From: Desulfobacterales bacterium
Lineage (GTDB): Bacteria; Desulfobacterota; Desulfobacteria; Desulfobacterales; SpSt-501
Direction of reading: 5' to 3'
NCBI GenBank assembly: GCA_035467535.1
Contig: DATITS010000053.1
Location: 395 to 64,394, forward strand
Length of the DNA: 64,000 nt
Positions 2 to 61,075 of this stretch are shown here, one piece after another (the stretch's first letter is position 1; each line of letters starts with the position of its first letter). Made by a program: the position numbers and the translations under genes. The notes beneath the pieces are model-generated. The model was not told the origin of the DNA and did no database searches. It worked only from the letters and a program-made list of their open reading frames with translations.

Positions 2-985
2 CAGAGCAACGTCCTGCGGGTCGCGGCGGCGGACGTGACCGGCAGGCTCCCGCTCATGCGGGTGAGCGACTTTCTCTCGGACATCGCCGAGATCGCCGTC
101 AACGCCGTCGTCGACCTCGCCTGGGACCACCTGGTGGAACGGCACGGAACTCCCGTCTGCCGCCTGGATGGTCGGCCCTGCGAACGGGGCTTCGCCGTCA
201 TCGCCTACGGCAAGTTGGGCGGGCTCGAGCTCGGCTACGGCTCGGACCTGGACCTCGTGTTTCTGCACGCGGGTGTCGACGGGCCGACGCGCGGCGGGCC
301 CCGGCCGATCGACACCGCCCAGTTTTTCAACCGCCTGGGCCAGCGCGTGATCCACATCCTGACCTCCCACACCCGCGCCGGCAAGGTCTACGAGATCGAC
401 ACCCGCCTGCGGCCGAGCGGGATCTCCGGCGTCCTGGTCCGGCACGTCGAGGCCTTCGGCGACTACCAGCTGAACGAGGCCTGGACCTGGGAGCACCAGG
501 CCCTCATCAAGGCGCGGGCCGTGAGCGGGGAGGCGCTGATCACCGCCCGTTTCGATGCCATCCGCGGCCAGACCCTCGCCCGGCGCCGGGATACGGGCCG
601 GCTGCGCTCCGACGTCATCGAGATGCGCGAACGCATGCGCCGGGAGCGCAGCCGGCCCGAAGCCGGCGTTTTCGACCTCAAGCAGGACCCGGGCGGGATG
701 GTCGACATCGAGTTCCTGGTCCAGTACCTGGTCCTGCGCCTCGCGCAGCGCCACCCGGAGCTGGTGCAGTGGACCGACAACGTGCGCCTGATCCAGACCC
801 TGATCGGTGCGACGGTGCTGAACGAGGTCACGGCCCACGTCCTCAAGCACGCCTACCTGATCTACCGTGCGGCCGCCCACCAGTTGAGCCTGCAGGAAAA
901 ACCCGCTACCGTCCCCGCGGAAAAGTTCGACCGCCTGCAGCGGCGCATCCGCCAGATCTGGAGGGCCGTCTTCCGGGAACGCTGA
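2..985 (+). CDS. glnE: glutamine synthetase adenylyltransferase/adenylyl-removing enzyme GlnE, C-terminal part (5' end outside window)
   Basis: The frame is open from the window edge (QSNVLRVAAADV precedes the tracked GTG at 35). Nucleotidyltransferase motif GKLGGLELGYGSDLDLVFL and DTRLRPSG are present. Stop at 983-985. Confidence 0.85.
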   Translation, partial: QSNVLRVAAADVTGRLPLMRVSDFLSDIAEIAVNAVVDLAWDHLVERHGTPVCRLDGRPCERGFAVIAYGKLGGLELGYGSDLDLVFLHAGVDGPTRGGPRPIDTAQFFNRLGQRVIHILTSHTRAGKVYEIDTRLRPSGISGVLVRHVEAFGDYQLNEAWTWEHQALIKARAVSGEALITARFDAIRGQTLARRRDTGRLRSDVIEMRERMRRERSRPEAGVFDLKQDPGGMVDIEFLVQYLVLRLAQRHPELVQWTDNVRLIQTLIGATVLNEVTAHVLKHAYLIYRAAAHQLSLQEKPATVPAEKFDRLQRRIRQIWRAVFRER

Positions 986-1006
986 GCCCACCCCCGCCGA
1001 TTTAAA

Positions 1007-1059
1007 TACAAAAATGTAAGCTTAAATTTTTTATTTTTTACAAAAATGTTATTTATAAT
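1007..1059 (+). promoter_or_regulatory. AT-rich island upstream of glnD with direct repeat TACAAAAATGT (1007-1017 and 1039-1049) and a TATAAT hexamer (1054-1059)
   Basis: Read directly from the sequence. The two 11-nt copies are identical and 32 bp apart. This is the only strongly AT-rich stretch between glnE and glnD. No good -35 element was seen. Confidence 0.3.
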
Positions 1060-1191
1060 TGCTCCCCACCGGGCCCCCTGAAGATAGACAACCAACTGAA
1101 AATATATGTCTTATTATATTCCGGCCGCGTGCTGGCACAGGCTTTGCTCAATGTCGGTAGGCATTTTCGGAAAGGGAAAGGAAGAGTCGGC

Positions 1192-3807
1192 ATGCGCGGC
1201 GTCCACGACCAGGCGACCCAGACCTTGCAGGAAAAAGTGGCGGAACTGACCGACCGCTTTCTGCGGGGCAAGCAGCCCGACTTTTTAAAGCAGCACTCCC
1301 GCGCGCTGGACGACTATTTCGAGCAGGCCTTCGCAACGAGTATGATCGGACCCCGGCTGGAAATCAACAAGAACCCCTACGTCATTATCGCCCTGGGGGG
1401 CTATGGCCGAGAGGAGCAATGCCTCTACTCCGACGTCGACTTGCTGTTTCTCTTCGGCAAGCGCGTTCCGCCCGAGGCCGAAAACCTGATCCGGGAGATG
1501 ATCTACCCGCTCTGGGACATCGGGATGGACGTCGGCTACGCCACCCGCTCCCTCAAGGAGTGCCTGTCCCTGGCCGCCAAGGACCTGAACGTTCTGACAC
1601 CCATCCTGGACGCCCGTTTCATCTGCGGCATGTCGATGCTGTTCTCCGAGCTGATGGCGCAGCTCCGCGAAAAAGTCATCCGCAAGCACTCCGGCCGCAT
1701 TCTCGAAGAGCTGATGGCCTACACGCACGGCCGCCATGCCCACTACGGGGACTCCGCGTATCTGCTGGAGCCGAACCTCAAAGAGGGCCAGGGCGGGCTG
1801 CGGGACTACCACACGATGGTCTGGGTCGCACGCCTCGAACACGACCTGCGCCAGAGCCGGGATCTCGAGTACCTGGGGCTGCTCTCCCACGCCGAATACC
1901 AGACCCTCTGGGAGGCCCTGGATTTCGTGTGGACCGTACGCAACCACCTGCATCATCTCTGCGGCCGGAAGACCGACCAGCTGCACTTCGAAAACCAGAT
2001 CAAGCTCGCCGAGCGGTTCCGGTACCGGGAGGAATCCGGCCAGCAGCCGGTCGAGCGCTTCCTGGGCGATTTGCACGCCCGGATGGATTCGATCAAACAC
2101 CAGCACCTCATGATGCTGCATGAGCTCGGCCTGGAAAACAAACGCAAGCGGCGGCGCCCCGCAACACCCAAGAACCCGATGGAGGGGATCGAGATCGTCG
2201 ACGAGGGGCTGTTGAATTTCGCGCGCCCGGAGGCCATTCTGAAGCGCCCCGAACTGCTCATCCGCATCTTCGAAGAAAGCGTGGTACTCAAGGCGCCGCT
2301 GAGCGCCGAGGCGAAGCGCCTGGTGCGGGAGTTCGCCTATTTAGTGGATCCGGCTTTTTGCGCGGCACCGGAGAGCGTGCGCAGCTTCGAGCGCATCCTG
2401 CTCGCGCCGGCCTCGGCCGCGAGCGCCCTGGACGACATGCTGACCACGGGACTGCTGGTGGCGTTCATCCCGGAGTTTCAGTTCGTCACCAACCGGATTC
2501 AGTACGATGAATACCACCTCTACCCCGTGGACAAGCACCTGCTGCGGACCGTCCAGACCATCACGCAGATCGCCGGGGAGGGCGCCGAGGCGGAGCCGCT
2601 CTGCGCCCGGATTTATCGCGAGCTGAAAAACAAAAACCTGCTGTTCTGGGCGGCCCTGCTGCACGACATCGGCAAGGGCGCAACCGAGGACGATCACGCG
2701 GGCCGGGGCGCCGAATTGACCCGGGAGATCCTTGCGGCCAAAGGCTTCACCCCGGCCGAGGTCGACACGGTGGCATTTCTGGTGCGCGAGCACCTCACCC
2801 TGATCAAAACCGCCACCCGCCGGGACATCCACGACGAGGAGACCGCCATCGTCTGCGCCCGCCGGGTCAGGGACGTCGAGCGGCTGAAAATGCTCTACCT
2901 GCTGACGGTGGCCGATTCCATGGCCACGGGGCCGGCGGCCTGGAACAGCTGGACCTCCCACCTGCTGCGGGAGTTTTTTTTCAAGGTGCTCAACACCCTG
3001 GAGAAGGGCGAACTCGCCTCCGCGGAGGCGGTCGAGGCCGTCGAGCGCAAACGCGCGGCGATCTTCGCCTCGGCATACTCCGCCGCTGAACGTGAGGAAC
3101 AGGAGCGGCTGTTCTCGGTGCTCTCCCCGCGCTATCTCCTGTCGGTCCCGGCCGAGAGCATCGTGGAGCAGTTGCGGCTGTTCGGGCGGCTGGGCGAGCG
3201 CGATTTCATCTGGACCGTTGCGCCCTCGGTCGACGGCAAGACCCGCACCGTGACCATCTGCGCCAAGGACCGCCCGGGGCTCGTGGCGAGCATGGCCGGC
3301 GTCTTCACCCTGAACCGCATCAACATCCTGGACGTGCAGGTGTTCACCTGGAGCAACCGCACGGCCCTGGACGTCTTCGAGGTGACCCCGCCGCCGGACT
3401 TGATTTTCGAGGACGACAAGTGGCGCCGGGCCGAGGAACACCTCAGGGCGGTCCTCGCCGGTGAGCTGGATCTTGCCGCCGCGCTGAAGCCGCACCTTGA
3501 ACTGCCCCGTTTCAGCAAACCGCGCACGGCCAGACGCGCCGATCGCGTACGGATCGACAATACCAGCTCCAGTTTCTTCACCATCGTCGAGGTGTTCGCC
3601 TACGACTTCCCGGGTCTGCTCTTCAGCATCGCGGATGCGCTCTTCCGCTGCGAGCTGGACATATGGGTGGCGAAGATCGCCACCAAGGTCGACCAGGTGG
3701 TGGACGTCTTTTACGTGCGGGACATCACCGGCCAGAAAGTGGATGGCGCCGACCGCGTCGCAGCCGTCAAGGAAGCCGTCATGGCGCGTCTGCCGGACAT
3801 TGCGTAA
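1192..3807 (+). CDS. glnD: [protein-PII] uridylyltransferase/uridylyl-removing enzyme GlnD
   Basis: 892-aa ORF with an N-terminal nucleotidyltransferase (GGYGREEQCLYSDVDLLFLF), an HD domain (LLHDIGKG...HAGRGA) and two C-terminal ACT-like repeats. The ATG at 1192 follows AAGGAAGAG. An alternative upstream start lies at 1129. Confidence 0.9.
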   Translation: MRGVHDQATQTLQEKVAELTDRFLRGKQPDFLKQHSRALDDYFEQAFATSMIGPRLEINKNPYVIIALGGYGREEQCLYSDVDLLFLFGKRVPPEAENLIREMIYPLWDIGMDVGYATRSLKECLSLAAKDLNVLTPILDARFICGMSMLFSELMAQLREKVIRKHSGRILEELMAYTHGRHAHYGDSAYLLEPNLKEGQGGLRDYHTMVWVARLEHDLRQSRDLEYLGLLSHAEYQTLWEALDFVWTVRNHLHHLCGRKTDQLHFENQIKLAERFRYREESGQQPVERFLGDLHARMDSIKHQHLMMLHELGLENKRKRRRPATPKNPMEGIEIVDEGLLNFARPEAILKRPELLIRIFEESVVLKAPLSAEAKRLVREFAYLVDPAFCAAPESVRSFERILLAPASAASALDDMLTTGLLVAFIPEFQFVTNRIQYDEYHLYPVDKHLLRTVQTITQIAGEGAEAEPLCARIYRELKNKNLLFWAALLHDIGKGATEDDHAGRGAELTREILAAKGFTPAEVDTVAFLVREHLTLIKTATRRDIHDEETAIVCARRVRDVERLKMLYLLTVADSMATGPAAWNSWTSHLLREFFFKVLNTLEKGELASAEAVEAVERKRAAIFASAYSAAEREEQERLFSVLSPRYLLSVPAESIVEQLRLFGRLGERDFIWTVAPSVDGKTRTVTICAKDRPGLVASMAGVFTLNRINILDVQVFTWSNRTALDVFEVTPPPDLIFEDDKWRRAEEHLRAVLAGELDLAAALKPHLELPRFSKPRTARRADRVRIDNTSSSFFTIVEVFAYDFPGLLFSIADALFRCELDIWVAKIATKVDQVVDVFYVRDITGQKVDGADRVAAVKEAVMARLPDIA

Positions 3808-3823
3808 AAAAATACTTTAACGA

Positions 3824-3968
3824 CTCAAGCAGTTAGGCTGAAGGCGGAAGGGTAAAAATGATCATCCATGACCCAATCACCTGTCAACGGTTCAAACGAT
3901 TTTGGCCTTGTGTGATCACGCATGGTTTGGCCCTAAAAGCCTTCAGCCTTCAGTCTATCTACCTGAGT
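3824..3968. repeat. palindromic intergenic element, family C copy 1 (arms ...caagcagttaggctgaaggcggaagggtaa... / ...gccttcagccttcagtctatctacctgag)
   Basis: The two ends are mutually complementary (GGCTGAAGGCGGAAG versus CTTCAGCCTTCAG). Both ends recur in inverted orientation at 5704-5904. Confidence 0.7.
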
Positions 3969-3995
3969 ATCAACCAGAGGAGGAATAGACTCACA

Positions 3996-5661
<1,666 letters not shown>

Positions 5662-5703
5662 GACCGTGCCCCCGTTGATTGGCCTTTATCATACGACGAC
5701 ACT

Positions 5704-5904
5704 ACTAAGGTAGATAGACCGAAGGCTGAAGACGGAAGACTCTTTGGTAATGAGGGCCCTCTGTGGGAGTGGCTTCCAGCCACGATACCATCGCGGCAAG
5801 ATGCCGCTCTCATAGAAAAAACTCAACTTCATTGGAAGGTAACGACATGCGCGATCATTATTACCCTTTCGTCTTCAGTCTTCAGCCTAAACACTTGAGC
5901 AGTT
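5704..5904. repeat. palindromic intergenic element, family C copy 2 (inverted relative to copy 1)
   Basis: ctaaggtagatagaccgaaggctgaagacggaag ... ccctttcgtcttcagtcttcagcctaaacacttgagcagtt. Both termini are reverse complements of the termini of the 3824-3968 copy. The internal region is longer and divergent. Confidence 0.7.
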
Positions 5905-6007
5905 ATGCACTTTAGCGTATTTCGCGCATTTCGTAGTTAAAAGCGATTTCAAATAGCGGAGTAGTAACAAACCCCATAACTAAAATTATGAAGAGGAGGA
6001 TTCAAAC

Positions 6008-7420
6008 ATGAAACCCAAAGAGGTATTGGCTTTTGCGAAAGAAAACGGCGCCAAGATGCTTGACATGCGATTCATTGACCTGCCGGGGGTCTGGCAGCAC
6101 TTCTCGGTCCCCATCAACCAGTTGGATGAGGGCAATTTCGAGGACGGGTACGGCTTCGACGGCTCCAGCATCCGCGGCTGGCAGCCGATCAACGCCAGCG
6201 ACATGCTGATCATCCCCGACCCGACGACGGCGAAGATGGACCCCTTCTGCGCCGAGCCGACCTTGAGCATGATCTGCGACATTGCCGACCCCCTTACCCG
6301 CGAGCCCTACTCCCGCGATCCGCGCAACATCGCCAAGAAGGCCGAGGCCTACCTGAAGAGCACCGGGATCGGCGACACGGTGTTCATGGGTCCGGAGGCG
6401 GAGTTCTTCATCTTCGACGACATCCGCTATGCGTCCAATAGCAACGGGGCTTTCTACGAGATCGACTCGGTCGAGGGCTCGTGGAACACGGGCCGGGACG
6501 AAGGGCCTAACCTGGGCTACAAGCCGCGGCCCAAGGAAGGCTATTTCCCGGTGCCCCCCATGGACAAGTTCCAGGACCTGCGCACCGAGATGGTGCTCGT
6601 TCTGGAGAAGCTCGGCATCGAGATCGAGGCCCAGCACCACGAGGTGGCGACCGCCGGGCAGGCCGAGATCGACATGAAATTCCGTCCGCTCGTGCAAATG
6701 GCGGACCAGTTGATGTGGTTCAAATACGTTCTGAAAAACGTCGCCTACCGCAAAAACCACACGGTGACCTTCATGCCCAAGCCCCTGTATGGCGACAACG
6801 GCTCGGGCATGCACATCCACTGCAGCATCTGGAAGGGCGGCAAGCCCCTTTTTGCAGGCGACAAGTACGCCGGGCTCTCCCAGATGGGGCTGCACGCCAT
6901 CGGCGGCATCCTCAAGCACTGCAAGGCGATCTGCGCTATCACCAACCCGACCACCAACTCTTACAAACGGCTGGTGCCCGGCTACGAGGCCCCGGTGAAC
7001 CTGGCCTACTCGAGCCGCAACCGCAGCGCGGCCATCCGTATCCCGATGTACTCCACGTCACCCAAGGCCAAGCGCATCGAGTTCCGGACCCCGGATCCGT
7101 CCTGCAACGGCTACCTCGCGTTCTCCGCCATCCTGATGGCGGTTATAGACGGCATCCAGAACAAGATCGACCCGGGAGACCCGCTGGACAAGAACATCTA
7201 CGACCTGCCGCCCGAGGAACTGGCCAAGGTGCCCTCGGCGCCGGGCTCGCTGGATGAGGCCCTGAACTGCCTGAAGGCCGACCACGAGTTCCTGATGAAA
7301 GGGGGCGTTTTCACCCAGGACGTGCTGGACATGTGGGCCGAGTACAAGACCGCCAACGAGATCGACCCCGTCCGGCTGCGCCCGCACCCGCACGAGTTTT
7401 TCCTGTACTTCGACATTTGA
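6008..7420 (+). CDS. glnA: glutamine synthetase type I
   Basis: 470-aa ORF with RBS GAGGAGGA at 5992-5999. GSI beta-grasp and catalytic-domain motifs ([31 protein letters not shown]). Also contains a region resembling the adenylylation loop (NIYDLPPEE). Confidence 0.95.
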
Positions 7421-8040: not shown

Positions 8041-8166
8041 GACGGCTGCGCCCGAAGCCCAAGATCAAGGCGCACGACTCCCGCGGCGCGAGGCGTACAC
8101 TGTGTACGCCGCAAGCGCCGGCGGGACGAAGTGCAACGCTGAGATTGGGCTTCCGGCGCAGCCGTC
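8041..8166. repeat. long palindromic intergenic element, family B copy 1
   Basis: gacggctgcgcccgaagccc...ggcgtacactgtgtacgcc...gggcttccggcgcagccgtc. It is self-complementary end to end. Its reverse complement matches the copies at 14351-14473 and 14522-14652. It abuts the stop codon of the NifA-like gene. Confidence 0.75.
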
Positions 8167-9697
8167 AGCGGAAGGTGCGGTAGTCGATGCCGTGCAGCTG
8201 GGCCTTGTAGGCGAACTTGCGCACGGTGGTTTGCAGGATCTTGGCGGCACCGGTGATGTTGCCCCGGGTGTTCTTGAGGGAGTCGATGATCATTTCGCGC
8301 TCGAGGTTGGCGACGGCCTCCTCCAGCGACAGCGCCGGCAGGGTGCCGGACTCCTTGCCGGTCTGCAGCGTCGGCGGCAGGTGGTAGCTGTGGATGACCC
8401 CCTCCTCGCAGACCAGCACGGCCCGCTCGAGGCAGTTCTCGAGCTCCCGCACGTTGCCCGGCCAGTGGTACTGCATCAGCATGTCGATCGCCGGCGTTGA
8501 AAACCGCCTAATGTCCTTGTGGTTTTCCTTGGCGTATTTCTCCAGGAAATAATCGGCCAGCAGCAGGATGTCGGTCTTGCGTTCCCGCAAGGGCGGCATG
8601 TAGATGGGGAACACGTTCAGACGGTAGTAAAGGTCGCCCCGGAAGGTCCCATCCTCCACGGCCTGCTCCAGGTTCTTGTTGGTCGCGATGATGACGCGCA
8701 CGTCGACCTTGATGGTGCGCTGGCCCCCCACGCGGTCGAACTCCTTCTCCTGCAGGATGCGCAGGAGGTTGGCCTGGACGTCCAGGTTGATCGAGCCGAT
8801 CTCGTCGAGGAAGATGGTGCCGCGGTGGGCCAGCTCGAATTTGCCCATCTTCTGCTTGATCGCGCCGGTGAAGGCCCCCTTTTCGTGACCGAACAGCTCG
8901 CTTTCGATGAGGTTGGAGGGCAGCGCGGCGCAGTTGACCTTGATGAACGGGTTGGCCGCCCGCTGGCTGTTGTAGTGGATCGAGTTCGCCACCAGCTCTT
9001 TGCCGGTGCCGCTTTCTCCGCGAATGAGGACGGTGGCGTTGCTGCGGCTCACCTGGGAGACCATCTGGTAGACTTCCCGCATGCGGTTGCTGCTGCCGAT
9101 GATGTTGTTGATGGTGTACTTGCTCTTGAGCTCGGTCTGCAGGCGCCGGTTTTCATCCCGCAGCCGCTCGTGCTCGACCCGGATCGTCTCCAGCTTGATC
9201 ACGTGGCTGGCGACCATGGTGGCGATGACCGAAAGCAGGCGCCGCCCGTTGTCCAGGGAGTAGGACGCCTCGTAGGGCCGGTCCACGCTGAGGGCTCCGA
9301 TCACCTGCGCGCCCTTCTTGATGGGAACGCAGAAGAAGGAGAGGTCCCGGTCCTCCTTTTTCTTGCGGCTGGCGGTGCGGTCCAGGAAGCGCGGCTCATC
9401 GCTGATGTGGGGGATCGCGACCGCCTTGCCGGTTTCGATGACCCGGCCGGTGATGCCTTCGCCGAGCTTGTACCTCACCCGTTCGATCGCGGACCGGGAA
9501 ATTCCGTGGGCGACCTCGATGTTGATCTCGTTGCGCAACGGGTCCAGAAGGGTGATGGTACCCCGCACCATGTTCATGGCGCTGGAAAGAATGTCGAGGA
9601 CCTTGTATAAGGACCGCTTGAGGTCCAGGTGCTCATTGAGCGCTTGGCTGATCTCGTAGAGCAGGCTGGTCTCCTCGATGCGTTCAATCGGTTTCAT
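8165..9697 (-). CDS. sigma-54-dependent transcriptional activator with N-terminal GAF domain (NifA-like, Fis-type HTH)
   Basis: GAF region ([41 protein letters not shown]). AAA+ sigma-54 interaction module ([29 protein letters not shown] loop). C-terminal HTH ([20 protein letters not shown]). Start placed at MKPIERIEE (ATG at 9697); the tracked ORF start at 9805 is less likely. Confidence 0.85.
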
Positions 9698-11862: not shown

Positions 11863-14352
11863 ATGCGAGAGAAGGAAAAAATAGTGGTAACGAGTGAGGG
11901 GCGTTTGGATCTGGACTCCTTCACGTGGGACGAACAGGTGTTCACCGACATCCTGATTCGGGACAACCCCATCAACAGCGACCAGGCGCTGGGGATCAGC
12001 CGCTTTCTGCGGGATGAGATTTCCAAGATGGAGCCCCAGACCATCACCCTCTCCCTCATCGAAAAGATGATCGAGGACAAGCTCATGGAGTACGGGCTGA
12101 CCAAACCGACGCGGGTGCGGTTGGACAAATCCATCTTCGTCAAGAAGGGGTTGGCCCTTTCCGAAAACGCCGTCACCGTGCTGAAAAGGCGCTACCTCCG
12201 CAAGGACAACCAAGGCAAAGTGATCGAAACCCCGGAAAAGATGTTCCGGCGGGTCGCCCAGCACATCGCCAAGGCCGAGAAAAACTACGGGGCCGATGAC
12301 GAGCGCGTCAAGGCCGTCGAGGAGACCTTCTACGACCTGATGACCCAGGTCGCCTTCCTGCCCAACTCGCCGACGCTGATGAATGCCGGCCGGCGCCTGG
12401 GGCAGCTTGCGGCCTGCTTCGTGCTGCCGGTCGAAGACAGCATGGAGGGCATCTTCGGCGCCCTGCGCAATGCGGCCATGATCCACAAGTCCGGCGGCGG
12501 CACCGGCTTCTCCTTTTCCCGTCTGCGCCCCAAGGACAGCAACGTGGGCACCACCGGCGGCGTGGCCTCGGGCCCGGTCTCGTTCATGAAGATCTTCAAT
12601 ACCGCCACCGAACAGGTCAAGCAAGGAGGCACCCGCCGGGGCGCTAATATGGCCATCCTGCGAGTGGACCATCCGGACGTCATGGAGTTCATTCACAGCA
12701 AGAGCAACGACCGGGAACTCAACAACTTCAACATCTCGGTCGGCGTGACCGACGCCTTCATGGAGGCCGTCGCCGCACAGCAGGAATACGACCTGCTCGA
12801 CCCCCGGGACAGGCAGCCCGCCGGCCGGCTGAACGCCGCCGCGGTCTACGAGGCCCTGGTCACCCAGGCGTGGAAGACGGGGGACCCCGGGATCATCTTC
12901 CTCGACCGCATGAACGCCGACAACCCCACCCCGGCCATCGGCGAGATCGAGTCCACGAACCCGTGCGGCGAACAGCCGCTGCTGCCGATGGAAGCCTGCA
13001 ACCTGGGATCGGTCAACCTGGCGAAGTTCGTCGTCGAATCCGCCAGCGGGCCGGCGGTCGACTACCCCAGGCTCAAGGAGGCCATCGGCTGGTCCGTGCG
13101 CTTCCTGGACAACACCATCGACATGTCCCGCTATCCCCTGCCCGAGATCACCGACATGGTGCGGGGCAACCGCAAGATCGGGCTCGGGGTCATGGGGTTT
13201 GCCGACATGCTCTTCCAGTTGGGCATCCCCTACAACTCCGAGGAGGCGCTGCAGGCGGCCGAGGAGGTGATGCACTTCATCCAGGAGGCCTGCCACGAGA
13301 CCTCCGAGTCGCTGGCGCAGGAGCGGGGGGTGTTTACGAACTGGGAACAGAGCGTTTTCAAGGAAAAGGGCCAGCAGCGCCGCAACGCGACCACCACCAC
13401 CATCGCCCCCACCGGCACCTTGAGCATCATCGCCGGCTGCTCGAGCGGGATCGAGCCTCTGTTTGCCCTGAGCTTCGTGCGCACGGTCATGGACAACGAC
13501 AAGCTCATGGAGGTCAACCCCGTGTTCGAAAAGGCGGCGCGGGAAAGAGGCTTCTACCGCCCGGAGCTCATGGACCAGGTGGCCCGCAAAGGCAGCATCC
13601 ATGAGATCGAGGAGATCCCCGAAGAGGTCCGCCGGGTGTTCGTGACCGCCCACGACGTCTCCTCCGAGTGGCACATCCGCATGCAGGCCGCTTTTCAGAA
13701 GCACACCGACAACGCCGTGTCCAAGACGGTGAACCTGCCCCGGGATGCGACCGTGGAGGACGTGCGCAAGGTCTACGACCTCGCCTACCAGCTGCGCTGC
13801 AAGGGGGTCACGATCTACCGCGACGGCAGCAAGGAAAACCAGGTCCTCTCCTTCGGCCAGAAGAAAGAGGAGGCGGAGCGGCTCATGGGGGCCGTTCTGG
13901 ATCGGCCTGAGACCTTGTTTGGATTCACCACCAAGACCAAGACCGGGTACGGCCACCTGTATGTCACCGTGACTGAATTTGAGGGCCGGCCCTTCGAGGT
14001 GTTCGCCACCATCGGCAAATCCGGGCGTTCCACCACCGCCAAGACCGAGGCCATCGGACGGCTCGTGTCGCTCGCGCTCAGGGCCGGGGTGACGGTGGAC
14101 AAGATCGTGGAGCAGCTCAAGGGCATCGGCGGGGAGCACCCCATCTTCCAGGACGGGGGGCTGGTTCTATCGATACCGGACGCCATCGCCCGGGTGCTCG
14201 AGAAACGCTACATGACCGGCGACAATGCGCCCATGTTCCGCAAGACCGAATACAGCCTGCTCGGGGAAAAATGCCCGGAGTGCGGGCAGGTCGTGAGCTT
14301 CGAGGAGGGGTGCATGATCTGCCACTTCTGTGGCTTCAACAAATGCGGATGA
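11863..14352 (+). CDS. nrdJ: adenosylcobalamin-dependent (class II) ribonucleotide reductase
   Basis: Class II RNR catalytic core (NPCGEQPLLPMEACNLGS, TIAPTGT) and a C-terminal Cys-rich tail (CPECGQVVSFEEGCMICHFCG). The ATG at 11863 is preceded by AGGGGG. The tracked start at 11839 is the alternative. Confidence 0.9.
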   Translation: MREKEKIVVTSEGRLDLDSFTWDEQVFTDILIRDNPINSDQALGISRFLRDEISKMEPQTITLSLIEKMIEDKLMEYGLTKPTRVRLDKSIFVKKGLALSENAVTVLKRRYLRKDNQGKVIETPEKMFRRVAQHIAKAEKNYGADDERVKAVEETFYDLMTQVAFLPNSPTLMNAGRRLGQLAACFVLPVEDSMEGIFGALRNAAMIHKSGGGTGFSFSRLRPKDSNVGTTGGVASGPVSFMKIFNTATEQVKQGGTRRGANMAILRVDHPDVMEFIHSKSNDRELNNFNISVGVTDAFMEAVAAQQEYDLLDPRDRQPAGRLNAAAVYEALVTQAWKTGDPGIIFLDRMNADNPTPAIGEIESTNPCGEQPLLPMEACNLGSVNLAKFVVESASGPAVDYPRLKEAIGWSVRFLDNTIDMSRYPLPEITDMVRGNRKIGLGVMGFADMLFQLGIPYNSEEALQAAEEVMHFIQEACHETSESLAQERGVFTNWEQSVFKEKGQQRRNATTTTIAPTGTLSIIAGCSSGIEPLFALSFVRTVMDNDKLMEVNPVFEKAARERGFYRPELMDQVARKGSIHEIEEIPEEVRRVFVTAHDVSSEWHIRMQAAFQKHTDNAVSKTVNLPRDATVEDVRKVYDLAYQLRCKGVTIYRDGSKENQVLSFGQKKEEAERLMGAVLDRPETLFGFTTKTKTGYGHLYVTVTEFEGRPFEVFATIGKSGRSTTAKTEAIGRLVSLALRAGVTVDKIVEQLKGIGGEHPIFQDGGLVLSIPDAIARVLEKRYMTGDNAPMFRKTEYSLLGEKCPECGQVVSFEEGCMICHFCGFNKCG

Positions 14353-46581: not shown

Positions 46582-47313
46582 TCACTCGTCGCAGCTGAAC
46601 GTGGCTGCCGTTTGAGGCTTTTCATTTACGCAAAGCTTGAAAACATCCGGCCTGGCATAGTGGCCCGCCACATCGAGATCGTACTTGCCGCACGCAATCT
46701 GTCCGAGGTCGATCTCCGCCGTCAGGATGGTTTCTTCCCCGTAGTGCGGCTCCACGATAAATTCCCCAAGCGGGTTGATGATACAGCTGCCGCCGCGAAT
46801 GAATACGGTTTGAGGATCATTGCCTTGAATCGCAGGATAATCCGCAGGGTATGCTTCCCGTTTGATGTACTGGCAGGCAGAGAGAACAAAACAGCGCCCC
46901 TCAAAGGCAATATGGCGCATGGTGTGAATCCAGCTGTCGCGGTCGTCCACAGTGGAAACGCAATACAGTTGAATCCCCTTGGCATACATGGCCATGCGGA
47001 GCATCGGCATGTAGTTTTCCCAGCAGATCACGCTGCCGACCCGGCCCAAGGGAGTGTCCACCACCGGCAGGGTGGACCCGTCACCGAACCCCCAGATCAG
47101 TCGTTCCATGGCCGTGGGCATGAGCTTGCGGTGCTTGGCCATCAATTCGCCTTGGGGCGAGAAGAAGAGCACCGTGCAGTACAGGGTCCCGCCGGCACGC
47201 TCGATAACGCCGATCAGCAGCGTGATCCGGTTCTTGTCTCTGTTGGATTTTTCTAGAAATTGCAGATGGGGTCGGGCTGCGGGGTGCCCTTGGGCTGACC
47301 GGTCGGTGGCTTT
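46582..47313 (-). pseudogene. 5'-truncated nitrilase (C-N hydrolase superfamily) gene
   Basis: The frame reads ...[38 protein letters not shown]...[11 protein letters not shown]... The catalytic Lys and Cys regions are present. The open frame is closed by a TGA at 47314-47316. Only about 35 bp remain before the neighbouring gene, so the first ~80-90 aa, including the catalytic Glu (FPE) region, are absent. Confidence 0.65.
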
Positions 47314-49376: not shown

Positions 49377-50453
49377 TCAAACATAGAAAATGGGGTCCAG
49401 TTTTTTTCGCAGGCGCACGGCCTCGAGCAACCCCACCGTGCCGGTCATCATGTTGTCGCCCAGGGGGGCGCCCCACACCATCGGGAAGCGGGAACCGGCC
49501 ACCATTTTCCGCTTGGGGCCGGTGGCGATGATGGTGGCGAGGGCTTCCGGGCCGGCACTCTTGCGGATGTAGGCGCCGTGGCCGCCCTCGCCCAGGATGC
49601 CGGCGTGGTCCAGGCGCCCGGCGGCAAGGTCCTGCAGCAGCCTCTCCAGTCGCTCGCAGGTGATGTCCCGCGTGTGATACTCGACGAACCCGGCGAGTTC
49701 GCCCTGCAGCATGGCCGCACAGACCGTGTGCGAGGTGGCGATGTCGAGCACCATGAACCGCTCCCGGTTCCGGGCGGCCATGTCGCAGGCGGCACCGGTG
49801 ATGGCGGCCATCCCGCTGTCCATCACGTAGATCTCGTCGGTCGGCAGCTCGCGTGCGCTTGCTGCCATGGACCGCAGCCGGTTCATTACCGGCGGGATCT
49901 CGCCCGCGGCAAACAGCAGCGTTTGCGGAAGCGGCTGCGTATCCAGGCGTTCGCGATAGATGTGGTGGCGGAAATCGAGGTGAGACACACCTTGCGGCGG
50001 CACCCCGTGGTCCTGGGCGCAGATCGCAACGGCCTCGAACGCATAGGGCACGCCGAAGCCTTCCACGATCTGCCGCAGCCGGTCCGCTTGCACATCCCGC
50101 AGCACCAGATGGGAATACTTTTTCCGCCGTCGCAGGGCTTCGGCTTCTTCGTCGCCGACGACGGTGATTCCCCAGGCGCGGACCCGCTCCGGGTCATGGG
50201 CCAGGGTGGCGGCCGCCGAGGCCGACATGACCACCGCGTGGGTCGCGGCCCGCTCGCGCAGGACCTCCGTCACCGGCCCTCCGCCCATCTCGCAGCCGGT
50301 GACCAGCAGATCGCCCGCCAGCCGCGCGGCCTGCGCCGCAATCGTTCGCACCGGTGAGACCACCACGGCCTTGTAGTGGTGGGCGGATTCGGTGTCGTAC
50401 CAGAGCACGTCGAGCGTGCCGGCGCCGATATCGAGCAGCAGAAAACGGCTCAT
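49377..50453 (-). CDS. DUF1786-like protein with actin/HSP70-type (ASKHA) phosphate-binding start
   Basis: MSRFLLLDIGAGTLDVLWYD (DxGxGT), MVLDIATSHT and GGHGAYI. Confidence 0.6.
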   Translation of the reverse strand: MSRFLLLDIGAGTLDVLWYDTESAHHYKAVVVSPVRTIAAQAARLAGDLLVTGCEMGGGPVTEVLRERAATHAVVMSASAAATLAHDPERVRAWGITVVGDEEAEALRRRKKYSHLVLRDVQADRLRQIVEGFGVPYAFEAVAICAQDHGVPPQGVSHLDFRHHIYRERLDTQPLPQTLLFAAGEIPPVMNRLRSMAASARELPTDEIYVMDSGMAAITGAACDMAARNRERFMVLDIATSHTVCAAMLQGELAGFVEYHTRDITCERLERLLQDLAAGRLDHAGILGEGGHGAYIRKSAGPEALATIIATGPKRKMVAGSRFPMVWGAPLGDNMMTGTVGLLEAVRLRKKLDPIFYV

Positions 50454-50665
50454 CGGTCCTTATCCTTGACGGTGCGGATGAACTCATCGGTGTCGGCCAT
50501 CTGGGGCACGATCGTGGGGTGCACGAAGGAGCCGACCTGCAGCCGCTTGACACCGGCCGCCACGAGCAGCCGGAAGAGGGCCAGCTTGTCTTCCAGCCGC
50601 AACACCTTCGGCTCGAACTGCAGGCCGTCTCGCAAGGATTCGTCTTCCAAAATCACGCAGGCCAT
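50450..50665 (-). pseudogene. N-terminal 71-aa fragment of a DRE-TIM metallolyase (HMG-CoA lyase / pyruvate carboxyltransferase-like)
   Basis: VILEDESLRDGLQFEP...AGVKRLQVGSFVHPTIVPQMAD represents the first ~70 of ~300 residues of this family. The frame ends in a TGA that overlaps the ATG of the next gene. Confidence 0.5.
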
Positions 50666-51278: not shown

Positions 51279-51677
51279 TCAATCCGGGTTCGGCGACACG
51301 TCGGGCTCCACCTGGTAGGCATTGGCGATCCGGTTCGTGCCGCAGAAGACGTCCACCACGGCCACGATCTCGCCGATGGCCTCGTTGTCCAATCCGAGCC
51401 GCTTCACGGCGGCGCTGTGGGAGTGGATTCAGTACTCGCAGTTGTTGGTGATCGAGACGGAAAGCGCAATGATTTCCTTGGTCAGCGGGTCCAGCTTGCC
51501 GGGTTTCATGACGACTTTCAGTTTCTGCCAGACCGCCTCGAGATGCATCGGGTTCACCGACAGGGCCTTCCAGAAATTGGGGATGAAGTCGATCTTCTTG
51601 GTGGCCCGGATGTCATCGTAGACGGCCTTGACCGTGCCGGTCGCTTCTGCTTCCGATACCGTGCGAAAGAGTGCCAT
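51279..51677 (-). CDS. AhpD-like / carboxymuconolactone-decarboxylase-family protein with in-frame TGA (candidate selenocysteine, motif C-E-Y-U)
   Basis: The tracked ORF stops at TGA 51429-51431, inside ...SITNNCEY[TGA]IHSH..., which is the position of the second Cys of the family CxxC. The same frame continues for 49 family-like codons to the TGA at 51279-51281. A SECIS-like hairpin follows the first TGA. Confidence 0.65.
51388..51427 (-). other. candidate bacterial SECIS hairpin
   Basis: In the mRNA after the UGA there is a lower stem UCCA/UGGA (+5..+8 with +41..+44) and UCC/GGA. The upper stem is GCCGC/GCGGC (+19..+23 with +30..+34), capped by the loop CGUGAA, which contains a GU. Confidence 0.45.
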
Positions 51678-51698
51678 GAGTTATTCCTCCCTGAAGTT

Positions 51699-52274
51699 TC
51701 AAGCGTTAATTTTTTTGAGCAGCCAGGCCATGTTCTGGCCGAGGGTTCGCATGGTCCGGAGGCCCTCCTCGTCCGAGGCGACCTCGCCCTTCTCCCGGCC
51801 CACCCCCAGGTTCCAGTAGCTGGAGCCCGGGATGACCATCTGGCCGATGGTGAAAAAGTGGTTGATGGAATCCAGGGTGTGCACCGAGCCGGCGCGCCGC
51901 ACGGCGACCACGGCCGCGCCGACCTTGCGCCGGAGCAGTTCGTCGTTGGCCTTGGCGACCAGACCGGCGCGCTCGATCAGCGCCTTGAGATCGGCGCTCA
52001 TGTCGGCGAAGTAGGTGGGCGAGCCCAGGAGGATCCCGTCGGCGGCGATCATTTTTTCCAGGCATGCGTTCAGGATGTCCGTGTCCACTGCGCAGCGCCG
52101 GTTGCGGTTTTCAAAACATTTGTAGCAGGCGAGACACCCGTGAATTTTCTGGCCGCCCACCTGGGCCAGCTCTGTCTGAATGCCTTCGGTTTCGATCTCG
52201 GCCAGCACGTGCCGCATCAGTGTATAGGTGTTGCCGTCTTTTCTCGGGCTGCCGTTGAACGCGACAACTTTCAT
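51699..52274 (-). CDS. iron-sulfur flavoprotein (Isf-like NAD(P)H-dependent FMN reductase family)
   Basis: MKVVAFNGSPRKDGNT (flavodoxin-like FMN site), the compact Cys motif CLACYKCFENRNRRC (CX2CX2CX7C) and GSPTYF. Confidence 0.8.
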   Translation of the reverse strand: MKVVAFNGSPRKDGNTYTLMRHVLAEIETEGIQTELAQVGGQKIHGCLACYKCFENRNRRCAVDTDILNACLEKMIAADGILLGSPTYFADMSADLKALIERAGLVAKANDELLRRKVGAAVVAVRRAGSVHTLDSINHFFTIGQMVIPGSSYWNLGVGREKGEVASDEEGLRTMRTLGQNMAWLLKKINA

Positions 52275-52302
52275 GCGAATAGCCTCCGGGTGCATTGCTT
52301 TT

Positions 52303-53883
52303 TTATTTTACCGCCACCGTTTCCCCCCGGCGCGGCACGACCACGTCGTAGCCTTCGGTTCTCAGCTCCTCTGCAAATGCGAGCGACTGCGTCTCTTCGC
52401 CGTGCACCAGGGCGATCCGCTTGATCCGCAGGTTGGACTGCTTCAAAAAGCGCCGCATCTCGTCCTTGTCCGCATGGGCGCTGAAACCGCCGATCTTAAC
52501 CACGTGGGCCTTGAGCGGGTATTCCTTGTTCAAGAGCTTCACGAGCGGCGCATCTCCCTTTCTGCCGGCCTGCGCGTAGGCCAGGCCGAGGTCTTCGATG
52601 CGCCGGCCCAGGGTGTTCTGGGCCATGTACCCGACGATCAGGACGGTGTTCCGCTCGTTGTGGATTTTAAAGCGCAGGTGGTGCAGGATCCGGCCGGCCT
52701 CGCACATCCCCGAGGCGGCAATAACGATCTGGGGCTTGTCTTGCCGGTTGAGGACCATGGACTCCTGCACCGAGCCGACGAACTTGATCTGGTCGAAGCG
52801 AAACGGGTTTTCCCCCTTGGAGAGGAAGGCCGCGTGCGTCTCCGGGTCGAACACCTCGGGGTGCTCCGCGAACACCCGGGTCAGGTTGGTCGCCAGCGGG
52901 CTGTCCACGTAGATCGGGATGTTGCGCAGGTTGTGCTCGTCCGCCATCTCGTGCAGGATGTAGAGCAGGGCCTGGGTCCGTCCGAAAGCGAACGCCGGGA
53001 TCAACACCGTGCCCCCCCGTTGAAAGGTCTGCTCCAGCACGGTCTGGAGTTGTCCCTTGAGGTCGCCGACGGCCTCGTGCCGGCGGTCGCCGTAGGTGCT
53101 CTCCATGACCAGCAGGTCGACGTCGCGCTCCTCCTCGGCGAAGGCGAGGGTGGGGTCGTTGAGGATCGGTTTGCCGAAACGGCCGATGTCCCCCGTGAAT
53201 GCCATCCGAACGGTGCGCCCGTTCTCGCGGGAAGTGAGCATGCTGATGGCCGAGCCCAGGATGTGCCCGGCGTCGTAGAAGGTGCAGGTCAGACCGTTGC
53301 CGACGGTGACCGTGTCCCGATAGGGGTAGCCGTCGAAGCAGGAGAGCGCCTGGTTGGCGTCGGCCACCGTGTACAAGGGGGTAACGGCTTCGAGGCGCAG
53401 CTGGGCGAGCAGGTCGTTGATGGTGTCCACCTTGAGCTCGTGGCGGCCCTTCTTGAGGAGCTGCTTGACTTCCCCCAGATCCGGGGCGTCGTCGTTTCCG
53501 CCGGCGCGGGTGAAGCGCTTCTGGGTGAGCGCCGAACGCACGGTCTTGTAGTTCAGGTAGTTGGCGTCCGACTCCTGGATGCTGGCCGAATCGAGGAGCA
53601 GATACTCGCACGCCGCGGCCGTGGCGCGCGTGCAGATGACGCGACCGGGGAACCCGTTTTGGGTCAGTACCGGAATCCGCCCGGAGTGGTCGAGGTGCGC
53701 ATGCGACAGCACGACATTGGTGAGCAGGCTGGGGTCGAGGGGCAGAACCCGGTTTTTCTCGGCAGCCTCCCGGCGCCGACCCTGAAAGAGCCCGCAATCC
53801 AGCAGAACGCGGTCGCTGCCCGTGGTGATGAGGTGCATGGAGCCCGTGACTTCGCGCGCCGCGCCCAAAAAAGTGACTTGCAT
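52303..53883 (-). CDS. beta-CASP family metallo-beta-lactamase RNase (RNA-specificity domain)
   Basis: MQVTFLGAAREVTGS, SHAHLDHSG, the beta-CASP region (ESTYG...) and a C-terminal SAHAD motif. Start at 53883. Confidence 0.85.
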   Translation of the reverse strand: MQVTFLGAAREVTGSMHLITTGSDRVLLDCGLFQGRRREAAEKNRVLPLDPSLLTNVVLSHAHLDHSGRIPVLTQNGFPGRVICTRATAAACEYLLLDSASIQESDANYLNYKTVRSALTQKRFTRAGGNDDAPDLGEVKQLLKKGRHELKVDTINDLLAQLRLEAVTPLYTVADANQALSCFDGYPYRDTVTVGNGLTCTFYDAGHILGSAISMLTSRENGRTVRMAFTGDIGRFGKPILNDPTLAFAEEERDVDLLVMESTYGDRRHEAVGDLKGQLQTVLEQTFQRGGTVLIPAFAFGRTQALLYILHEMADEHNLRNIPIYVDSPLATNLTRVFAEHPEVFDPETHAAFLSKGENPFRFDQIKFVGSVQESMVLNRQDKPQIVIAASGMCEAGRILHHLRFKIHNERNTVLIVGYMAQNTLGRRIEDLGLAYAQAGRKGDAPLVKLLNKEYPLKAHVVKIGGFSAHADKDEMRRFLKQSNLRIKRIALVHGEETQSLAFAEELRTEGYDVVVPRRGETVAVK

Positions 53884-54164
53884 GGTGTTTCTCCCTTTGG
53901 TGTGGTCCAAGGCAAATGCCCTGATAGGTAGATAATGATCGCCGGCATGTCAACCCTTATCGAGCGCCAAAACGGGCCAAATCCCGCTGCAATTTCGGGC
54001 GAGCCCCGGGGCGCACGGATTTGATCTATGAAAATGGGCGCACTTGTGGCATATTTTGCCTCCGCATCGGGGTGGCCGCGGGTGGATCCCATAGGCCGCT
54101 CAGGCGCCGGCCGTTGCCGGCCTGCCCCGGGTGCACACCGTCACCGCAAGAGGATCCCGTTCGA

Positions 54165-60594: not shown

Positions 60595-60739
60595 GAAAAT
60601 TATTTTCGGAACATGGTAGGTCCGCGGTGCGGCGTGGGCGTTCAGCCTCGATGGCCTCGAATGCGTTCAACCTCGCGCCGGGCGAATCCGCCATTTTCCG
60701 GTACCGGCTAATTTTCAAGTGCAAGGGGAGACACTTTCC

Positions 60740-61075
60740 ATGATGACGGTTGCGCGGTTGCACGAGTTGTTCGAATCCCACCCGGACAAGACCATGCTCG
60801 GGTTTCAGGGCCAATGCCACGACTGCGGCAAGGATGTGAACGTGGCGGTGGCACTCACCCCGGAAGGGTTTGCCATCAGTGGCGGGGCGGTCTACGAGCC
60901 CGAGCCCGACAAGTTCCACAATAAATGCGACGACTGCTACTGCAAGAGTCCGCAGCTGTCCGCCTACCGACGGTGCGAAGTCTACAGCCGGGTGGTCGGA
61001 TACCTGCGGCCGGTGGCGCAGTGGAACGAGGGCAAGCAGGCGGAATTCTCGGACCGCAAGGCCTACCGGGTGTGA
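60740..61075 (+). CDS. stand-alone NrdD C-terminal domain protein (Zn-ribbon plus glycyl-radical motif), 111 aa
   Basis: CHDC...CDDC Cys pairs followed by SRVVGYLRPVAQWNEGKQAEFSDRK. Compare the class III RNR C-terminus RRVCGYLG....FN.GKQ.E...R. RBS AGGGGAG lies 9 nt before the ATG at 60740. Confidence 0.7.
   Translation: MMTVARLHELFESHPDKTMLGFQGQCHDCGKDVNVAVALTPEGFAISGGAVYEPEPDKFHNKCDDCYCKSPQLSAYRRCEVYSRVVGYLRPVAQWNEGKQAEFSDRKAYRV

Follow-up and report, generated by a model that had tools for sequence, protein, structure and literature searches.

A probable AhpD-type selenoprotein gene with an in-frame UGA and a SECIS-like hairpin on a Desulfobacterales contig

A short gene of the AhpD/carboxymuconolactone decarboxylase (CMD) family on a contig assigned to a Desulfobacterales bacterium is interrupted by an in-frame TGA at the position of its second redox-active Cys codon. 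Sequence comparison indicates that this TGA is very probably a genuine selenocysteine (Sec) codon accompanied by a SECIS element, and that the gene encodes an AhpD-type selenoprotein. The predicted product would be a 132-residue, single-domain AhpD-core (CMD family) thiol/selenol oxidoreductase in which UGA at codon 83 is translated as Sec. The evidence comes from the whole stretch of 64,000 nucleotides that was analysed (the window), from homologues in public databases, species-representative genomes and metagenome contigs, and from structural models.

Results

A reading frame that continues through TGA

The gene lies on the minus strand, and the features needed to follow its reading frame are as follows.

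51279..51677, minus strand: candidate full-length AhpD/CMD-family selenoprotein gene, 132 sense codons plus a TGA stop at 51279-51281, with the ATG at 51675-51677
51429..51431, minus strand: in-frame UGA, codon 83, predicted to be read as Sec, at the second position of C80-x-x-U83
51686..51690, minus strand: Shine-Dalgarno-like GGAGG, 8 nt 5' of the ATG, found by reading the sequence

Translation of the minus strand from 51677 to 51279 gives MALFRT...SITNNCEY-TGA-IHSHSAAVKRLGLDNEAIGEIVAVVDVFCGTNRIANAYQVEPDVSPNPD-TGA, that is, 82 codons, the TGA at codon 83, 49 further open codons and the terminal TGA. A previous, sequence-only reading of this DNA had reported an 82-residue open reading frame (ORF) ending at this TGA and had equated the TGA with the second Cys codon of a CxxC motif; translation and the corresponding column in homologues confirm both points. 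The motif around codon 83 in the conceptual translation is C80-E-Y-U83-I-H-S-H87. Codon-usage log-odds, from a model trained on the long genes of the window, were positive on either side of the TGA (+60.9 bits before and +41.3 bits after). When the 64-kb window was scanned for other such cases, codon 83 was the sole in-frame TGA with coding signal on both flanks.

Profile searches of the full-length product, in which Cys was placed at codon 83, identified a PF02627 (CMD) match that extends over residues 47-122 and across the TGA (E = 1.7e-18; 66.8 bits, cut-off 23). Each half of the product alone matches the corresponding half of the PF02627 profile, and the homologue column aligned with the TGA contains Cys or TGA. 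The AhpD core domain model TIGR00778 was also matched above its cut-off (49.8 versus 27.8 bits). The score for TIGR01926 was below cut-off (66.5 versus 81.8 bits), and the cut-offs of the selenoprotein AhpD models NF041238 (24.8 versus 175), NF041047 (20 versus 110), NF041537 (26.2 versus 510), NF045649 (18 versus 380) and NF053654 (15.3 versus 310) were not reached. To judge from its sequence, the gene would work like the NCBIfam AhpD selenoprotein families, yet it is a member of none of these models.

The active-site helix is encoded from the TGA onward

The closest solved structure, PDB 2OUW (138 aa), aligns with residues 2-126 of the product, through the TGA (E = 2e-28). An AlphaFold model of P0001, a Cys orthologue with 95% identity, has a pLDDT of 93.3 and six helices, and superimposes on 2OUW with a TM score of 0.90 and an rmsd of 1.4 Å at 43% identity. 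On the basis of this model, the product is predicted to be a six-helix bundle with the all-helical AhpD fold. C80 and U83 map to the N-terminal end of helix 5 in the model of this Cys orthologue, and the helices encoded from the TGA onward span residues 81-93, which bear CxxU and His87, and residues 98-120. A product of 82 residues would thus stop short of the active-site helix and one further helix of the six, and would have no AhpD fold.

Residues E68, C80, Y82, C83 and H87 are invariant in 41 homologues. The AhpD proton relay consists of E118/C130/H132/C133/H137 in Mycobacterium tuberculosis AhpD and of E36/C48/Y50/C51/H55 in PA0269 (PMC3141380). The window protein, with E68, C80, Y82, U83 and H87, has the relay spacing E-x11-C-x-[HY]-C-x3-H, with Sec predicted for the second Cys. 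No AhpC, lipoamide-system or SucB genes were found nearby in a scan of the predicted window proteins.

Homologues carry Cys or TGA at codon 83

The protein search returned hundreds of full-length homologues of ~132 aa. In the best 120 database homologues, the codon-83 column is Cys in 109 and 'W' in nine. The sole 'W' entry checked at the DNA level, P0009 (the locus L007; 81% identical), has TGA at this codon, so its 'W' looks like a code-4 mistranslation, and the public 'W' versions as a group appear to be mistranslated TGA. Public 132-aa entries with Trp at the Sec position are P0009, P0010, P0012-P0017 and P0030, and in P0025 the residues around the Sec site are absent altogether.

Species-representative genomes contributed 80 loci, and the column is TGC or TGT in 57 of them and TGA in 22, which bears out the expectation of the sequence-only reading that homologues have Cys or Sec at this position. 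TGA loci map to metagenome-assembled genomes (MAGs) labelled delta proteobacterium, Desulfobacterales, Desulfobacteraceae, Desulfohalobiaceae, Syntrophomonadaceae and Bacillota, and further to one Olavius Delta 1 symbiont MAG (L026) and two oddly labelled MAGs. Cys loci are mostly from Planctomycetota and Chloroflexi-type genomes, with a few from Desulfobacterales. TGA forms make up one clade in a neighbour-joining tree, with the Cys forms L088 and L011 nested within it; the Cys forms L025, L030 and L032 are sister to the TGA clade, and the TGA form L035 is more basal.

A single base separates the TGA from the TGC of the closest Cys orthologue, as would be expected if the TGA were a sequencing or assembly error for TGC or TGT. 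However, six metagenome contigs, each from a different sample and together from several sequencing projects, carry the 82-aa head ORF with the identical TGA and open tail, which rules out sequencing error, and TGA also occurs in the 22 species-representative loci. The chance that the TGA is an artefact is negligible.

Purifying selection is equal on both sides of TGA

Selection was estimated as dN/dS by the Nei-Gojobori method from 25 distinct TGA-type sequences, with the downstream range defined as codons 84-131 minus the hairpin codons. Median dN/dS was 0.094 for codons 2-82 and 0.096 for codons 84-131, far from the value of about 1 that the sequence-only reading had set against its own proposal. 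Together with the PF02627 match across the TGA, the downstream value supports the description of the 49 post-TGA codons as open and family-like, in a frame of 132 codons in total. Equal purifying selection on both sides of the TGA rules out natural termination at this position, which had also been raised for the orthologues, as well as a decaying tail.

These results bear directly on the possibility that the gene is a pseudogene or encodes a naturally truncated 82-residue protein, with the TGA as a true stop and the 49-codon tail as a decaying remnant. Genes in the window end in TGA more often than in any other stop codon, and the public, automated gene calls on L001, L003 and L004 split the gene into an 82-aa ORF and a separate 42-aa ORF with a GTG start, two points in favour of truncation. 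Nevertheless, dN/dS in the tail equals that in the head, about two dozen species, represented by 25 distinct sequences, have preserved the TGA and the open tail, an 82-aa product would be without two of six helices, with the active-site helix and His87 among the losses, and synonymous sites are frozen exactly at the hairpin described below. We therefore regard truncation as highly improbable and a complete, selected 132-codon gene as the better description.

A SECIS-like hairpin directly 3' of UGA

Two nested features were delineated downstream of the UGA.

51388..51427, minus strand: whole predicted SECIS-like stem-loop, nt +5 to +44 from the U of UGA
51398..51413, minus strand: predicted SECIS core minihelix GCCGC-CGUGAA-GCGGC, nt +19 to +34, the presumed SelB binding site

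Folding reproduced the hairpin that had been drawn from the letters alone, with stems UCCA/UGGA and UCC/GGA, a 5-bp upper stem GCCGC/GCGGC and the loop CGUGAA, at a minimum free energy (MFE) of -16.2 kcal/mol. The minihelix loop occupies 51403-51408, with G-U at loop positions 2-3. As a single-sequence fold, the hairpin beats chance only weakly: z was -1.86 for a 47-nt segment (5/200 shuffles as stable) and -0.85 for a 60-nt segment (40/200 shuffles as stable). The significance of the hairpin is due to comparative data and not to folding energy.

Codons +6 to +10 after the UGA (GCC GCC GUG AAG CGG) have a third-position entropy of 0 in the 25 distinct TGA-type sequences. Third-position entropy is about 0.5-1.9 bits in the flanking codons of TGA-type genes and 1.4-1.7 bits at codons +6 to +10 of 57 Cys-type sequences. 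Gene-wide, the nucleotide-invariant codons of the 25 TGA-type sequences are W36, W50, M57, TGA, GCC89, GCC90, GTG91 and CGG93, the last four being the only degenerate codons without variation. Correspondingly, pS is 0.000 in codons 89-93 versus 0.65-0.73 elsewhere. All 27 TGA forms contain the motif GCCGCCGUGNNGCGGC, and none of the 57 Cys species representatives does; at equal G+C the Sec-type segments fold more stably than the Cys-type segments (-14.6 versus -10.4 kcal/mol, P = 6.6e-6).

Published constraints on bacterial SECIS (bSECIS) elements comprise a loop of 3-9 nt, an upper stem of 4-16 bp, a G in the first two loop positions, a UGA-to-loop distance of 16-37 nt and an MFE ≤ -7.5 (PMC13188914). 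The hairpin conforms to these constraints: its loop of 6 nt has G at position 2, then U, and lies 20 nt from the UGA, its upper stem is 5 bp long, and its MFE is that given above. Its likeness to bacterial SECIS geometry, first suggested from the sequence alone, therefore stands on the published constraints and on synonymous freezing confined to TGA-carrying orthologues.

Conservation is uneven along the hairpin. Over 20 distinct sequences, the lower helix is 87.9% paired, with some pairs lost and others altered by G-U wobble changes; the lower stems are broken in Asn-for-His variants and dispensable in several orthologues. Since the lower stems are only partly conserved, the core of the hairpin is the 16-nt minihelix at 51398-51413. 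No compensatory (two-sided) covariation was detected in the hairpin over the 20 distinct sequences because the upper stem never varies. Rfam returned no SECIS match at the gathering threshold and, for the locus at E ≤ 10, chance matches only, none of them to SECIS. To our knowledge, Rfam has no bacterial SECIS model and its SECIS families are eukaryotic, so this null result says little.

We note that the most divergent TGA-type orthologue (L035:3247-3300; 63% identical protein), from a MAG with the doubtful label 'uncultured Enterobacteriaceae', has an unchanged GCCGC/GCGGC stem and, in the loop, C-G-U-G followed by UU in place of AA (Val-Leu for Val-Lys). What matters in the loop may, to judge from this sequence, be its 5' half.

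The closest Cys relative retains the hairpin

The exception to the absence of the hairpin in Cys forms is the closest Cys orthologue, P0001, encoded on two JGI metagenome contigs (L088:788-1186 and L089:643-1041) and sharing 95% protein and 92.5% DNA identity with the window gene. Both loci have TGC for TGA, have the FMN_red neighbour described below, and retain the SECIS hairpin base for base. These sequences suggest that one A-to-C change recently switched Sec to Cys in this relative and left the L088/L089 hairpin behind as a fossil SECIS.

Neighbouring genes and Sec machinery

The gene immediately upstream encodes a flavoprotein.

51699..52295, minus strand: Isf-type flavoprotein with an FMN reductase fold, upstream neighbour, 21 nt away (PF03358 FMN_red, E = 2.6e-31)

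Isf proteins are defined by an FMN reductase-type fold and a compact CX2CX2CX5-7C motif (PMC3164229). The flavoprotein belongs to this group by both its fold and its cysteine motif, C-LA-C-YK-C-FENRNRR-C, that is, C-x2-C-x2-C-x7-C. This FMN_red neighbour is confined to L001-L006, which are same-strain contigs, and to L088/L089, the closest Cys relative; no shared neighbour recurs over the other 81 loci (L007-L087). The sequence-only reading was thus right to place an Isf-type flavoprotein next door, and its suggestion that this protein is a plausible redox partner gains no comparative support from linkage limited to the same or closest strains.

Upstream of the flavoprotein gene by 7 nt is a gene for a beta-CASP metallo-beta-lactamase nuclease (52303-53910, minus strand), whose best NCBIfam match is the type VII CRISPR Cas14 model; this gene order, too, recurs only in L001-L006 and L088/L089. 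Membership of the Cas14 family was rejected for this nuclease, as its 392 bits are far under the cut-off of 800.

No tRNA genes, tRNA-Sec included, and no other selenoprotein genes, taken as a proxy for the Sec trait, were found in the 64-kb window, and SelA, SelB and SelD/AIRS domains were absent from the 50 predicted window proteins scanned. We infer that the Sec machinery is present in the source genome.

That Sec machinery was not seen within the window, and that several public predictions give Trp at codon 83, would also fit a UGA recoded as something other than Sec, either by near-cognate Trp/Cys read-through or through genetic code table 4 or 25, with a hairpin that merely slows termination. 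Against this, TGA stops 39/56 predicted window genes, and one TGA alone lies inside coding sequence, so the genome is not on table 4 or 25, in which TGA would be Trp or Gly. The column is the catalytic CxxC Cys, invariant in Cys homologues, where Trp or Gly would kill the redox centre and where read-through without selenium would place a non-redox residue or a Cys supplied by some other route, and the hairpin geometry and G-U loop match SelB-type SECIS elements and would otherwise be unexplained. Moreover, the MAGs with TGA forms are labelled delta proteobacterium, Desulfobacterales, Bacillota or Syntrophomonadaceae, groups that have been reported as selenoprotein-rich (PMC1794560). We consider recoding as anything other than Sec improbable and favour insertion of Sec.

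Other features of the window

Several other loci in the window are partial or rearranged. A 71-aa ORF (50450-50665, minus strand) matches only the first ~60 of 260 HMGL-like profile positions and has a 4-nt overlap with the start of a DUF1786 gene; L004 is arranged alike. An otherwise near-identical contig (L001:11005-13246) encodes a 453-aa GT4 glycosyltransferase and a 279-aa HMGL-like protein at the same place, and the comparison identifies this HMGL-like/GT4 difference as a strain-level rearrangement beside the candidate selenoprotein gene. A carbon-nitrogen hydrolase (nitrilase family) ORF (46582-47172, minus strand) matches profile positions 96-252 of 256 only; its N-terminal third is absent, the upstream gene leaves no space for it, and the ORF is possibly a gene remnant. 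A 118-aa ORF (60719-61075, plus strand) matches only the extreme C-terminus (positions 521-562 of 562) of NrdD, the anaerobic ribonucleotide reductase (RNR); it forms a glycyl-radical-type tail on its own, and no NrdD body lies close to it. The window also encodes a class II-like RNR with a TSCPD domain (11863-14352). A nitrogen-regulation cluster (2-7420, plus strand) comprises a glnE fragment, glnD, and genes for an ammonium transporter, a P-II protein and glutamine synthetase, and a sigma-54 activator with a GAF domain is encoded on the opposite strand (8165-9697).

Discussion

Predicted decoding and function

By analogy with the bacterial Sec pathway, a complex of SelB, GTP and Sec-tRNA(Sec) would bind the minihelix GCCGC-CGUGAA-GCGGC as the ribosome reaches the UGA. 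The minihelix would begin 15 nt past the UGA, with the loop 20 nt downstream presenting G-U, and SelB would deliver Sec in place of termination. In the finished protein, the U83 selenolate may act as the attacking nucleophile, and C80 may resolve the intermediate as a selenenylsulfide. The protein is probably a peroxide or disulfide reductase or a peroxiredoxin adaptor.

Annotation and evolution

Read in this way, the gene calls for annotation as a single selenoprotein of 132 residues and not as two small ORFs or a pseudogene, as do its counterparts in about two dozen MAG species and on many metagenome contigs. It also offers a clean example of a SECIS, one that is defined by synonymous-site freezing, has a built-in control in the Cys forms and is accompanied by an apparent fossil in the nearest Cys orthologue. 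More tentatively, the 132-residue clade with the motif N-N-C-x-Y-U-I-H-S-H might represent an AhpD-core selenoprotein subfamily that lies outside any curated model or catalogue, although we doubt this more than we credit it. If it does, the clade is systematically mis-annotated, either as 82-aa plus 42-aa ORFs or with a code-4 Trp. The 16-nt SECIS core does not differ between MAGs placed in Thermodesulfobacteriota and those placed in Bacillota; under the same reading, either the gene and its SECIS would have spread laterally as a unit, or the sequence that SelB recognizes would be unusually strict.

Comparison with known systems

AhpD-like CxxU selenoproteins have been established since 2005, and the window gene is an ordinary addition to them that involves no new biology. 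Zhang, Gladyshev and co-workers described CxxU AhpD-like proteins as bacterial selenoproteins in the Sargasso Sea data in 2005 (27 sequences; PMC1088965) and, in 2008, in the GOS data, which contain 'AhpD-like 1' (COG2128; 299 sequences) and 'AhpD-like 2' (pfam02627; 70 sequences) (PMC2398784), so that the sequence-only reading was accurate in calling AhpD-like proteins a reported bacterial selenoprotein family. Further reports concern deltaproteobacteria, clostridia and the Olavius delta-1 symbiont (PMC1794560, PMC1976440), the last with five AhpD-like selenoproteins (PMC1976440); the TGA orthologue L026 of the window gene is in an Olavius Delta 1 symbiont MAG. Recent reviews, PMC13188914 among them, list the CxxU families AhpD-like (TIGR01926), CMD-like (PF02627), AhpD-related (NF041238) and distant AhpD (NF041047). 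The window gene resembles these AhpD-like and CMD-like families in its PF02627/COG2128-type domain, predicted Sec in the second position, Cys homologues, a bSECIS-like element directly 3' and occurrence in deltaproteobacteria and clostridia-type lineages. It differs from them in its short, single-domain form of 132 aa, which scores under the TIGR01926 cut-off.

Among solved structures, PDB 2OUW is the 'alkylhydroperoxidase AhpD core' of Rhodospirillum rubrum, a structural genomics target of untested function, and has a similar active-site string, N-S-C-S-Y-C-A-H-S-H. Unlike the window protein, it is alphaproteobacterial and has Cys rather than Sec. M. tuberculosis AhpD (1KNC/1GU9) and Pseudomonas aeruginosa PA0269 have five-residue relay spacing identical to that of the window protein, whose middle relay residue is Tyr, as in PA0269. 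Sequence similarity to M. tuberculosis AhpD is distant (E = 7e-4), and that protein, unlike the window protein, is 177 aa long with the motif in its C-terminal half. The hairpin, for its part, agrees with the bacterial SECIS consensus (bSECISearch; the SelB-binding minihelix of the Escherichia coli fdhF type) in lying inside the coding region shortly past the UGA and in having a small apical loop with G then U on a 5-bp, G+C-rich upper stem. It departs from the commonest bacterial SECIS sub-pattern, in which N1 and N2 are paired, as its loop is C...A.
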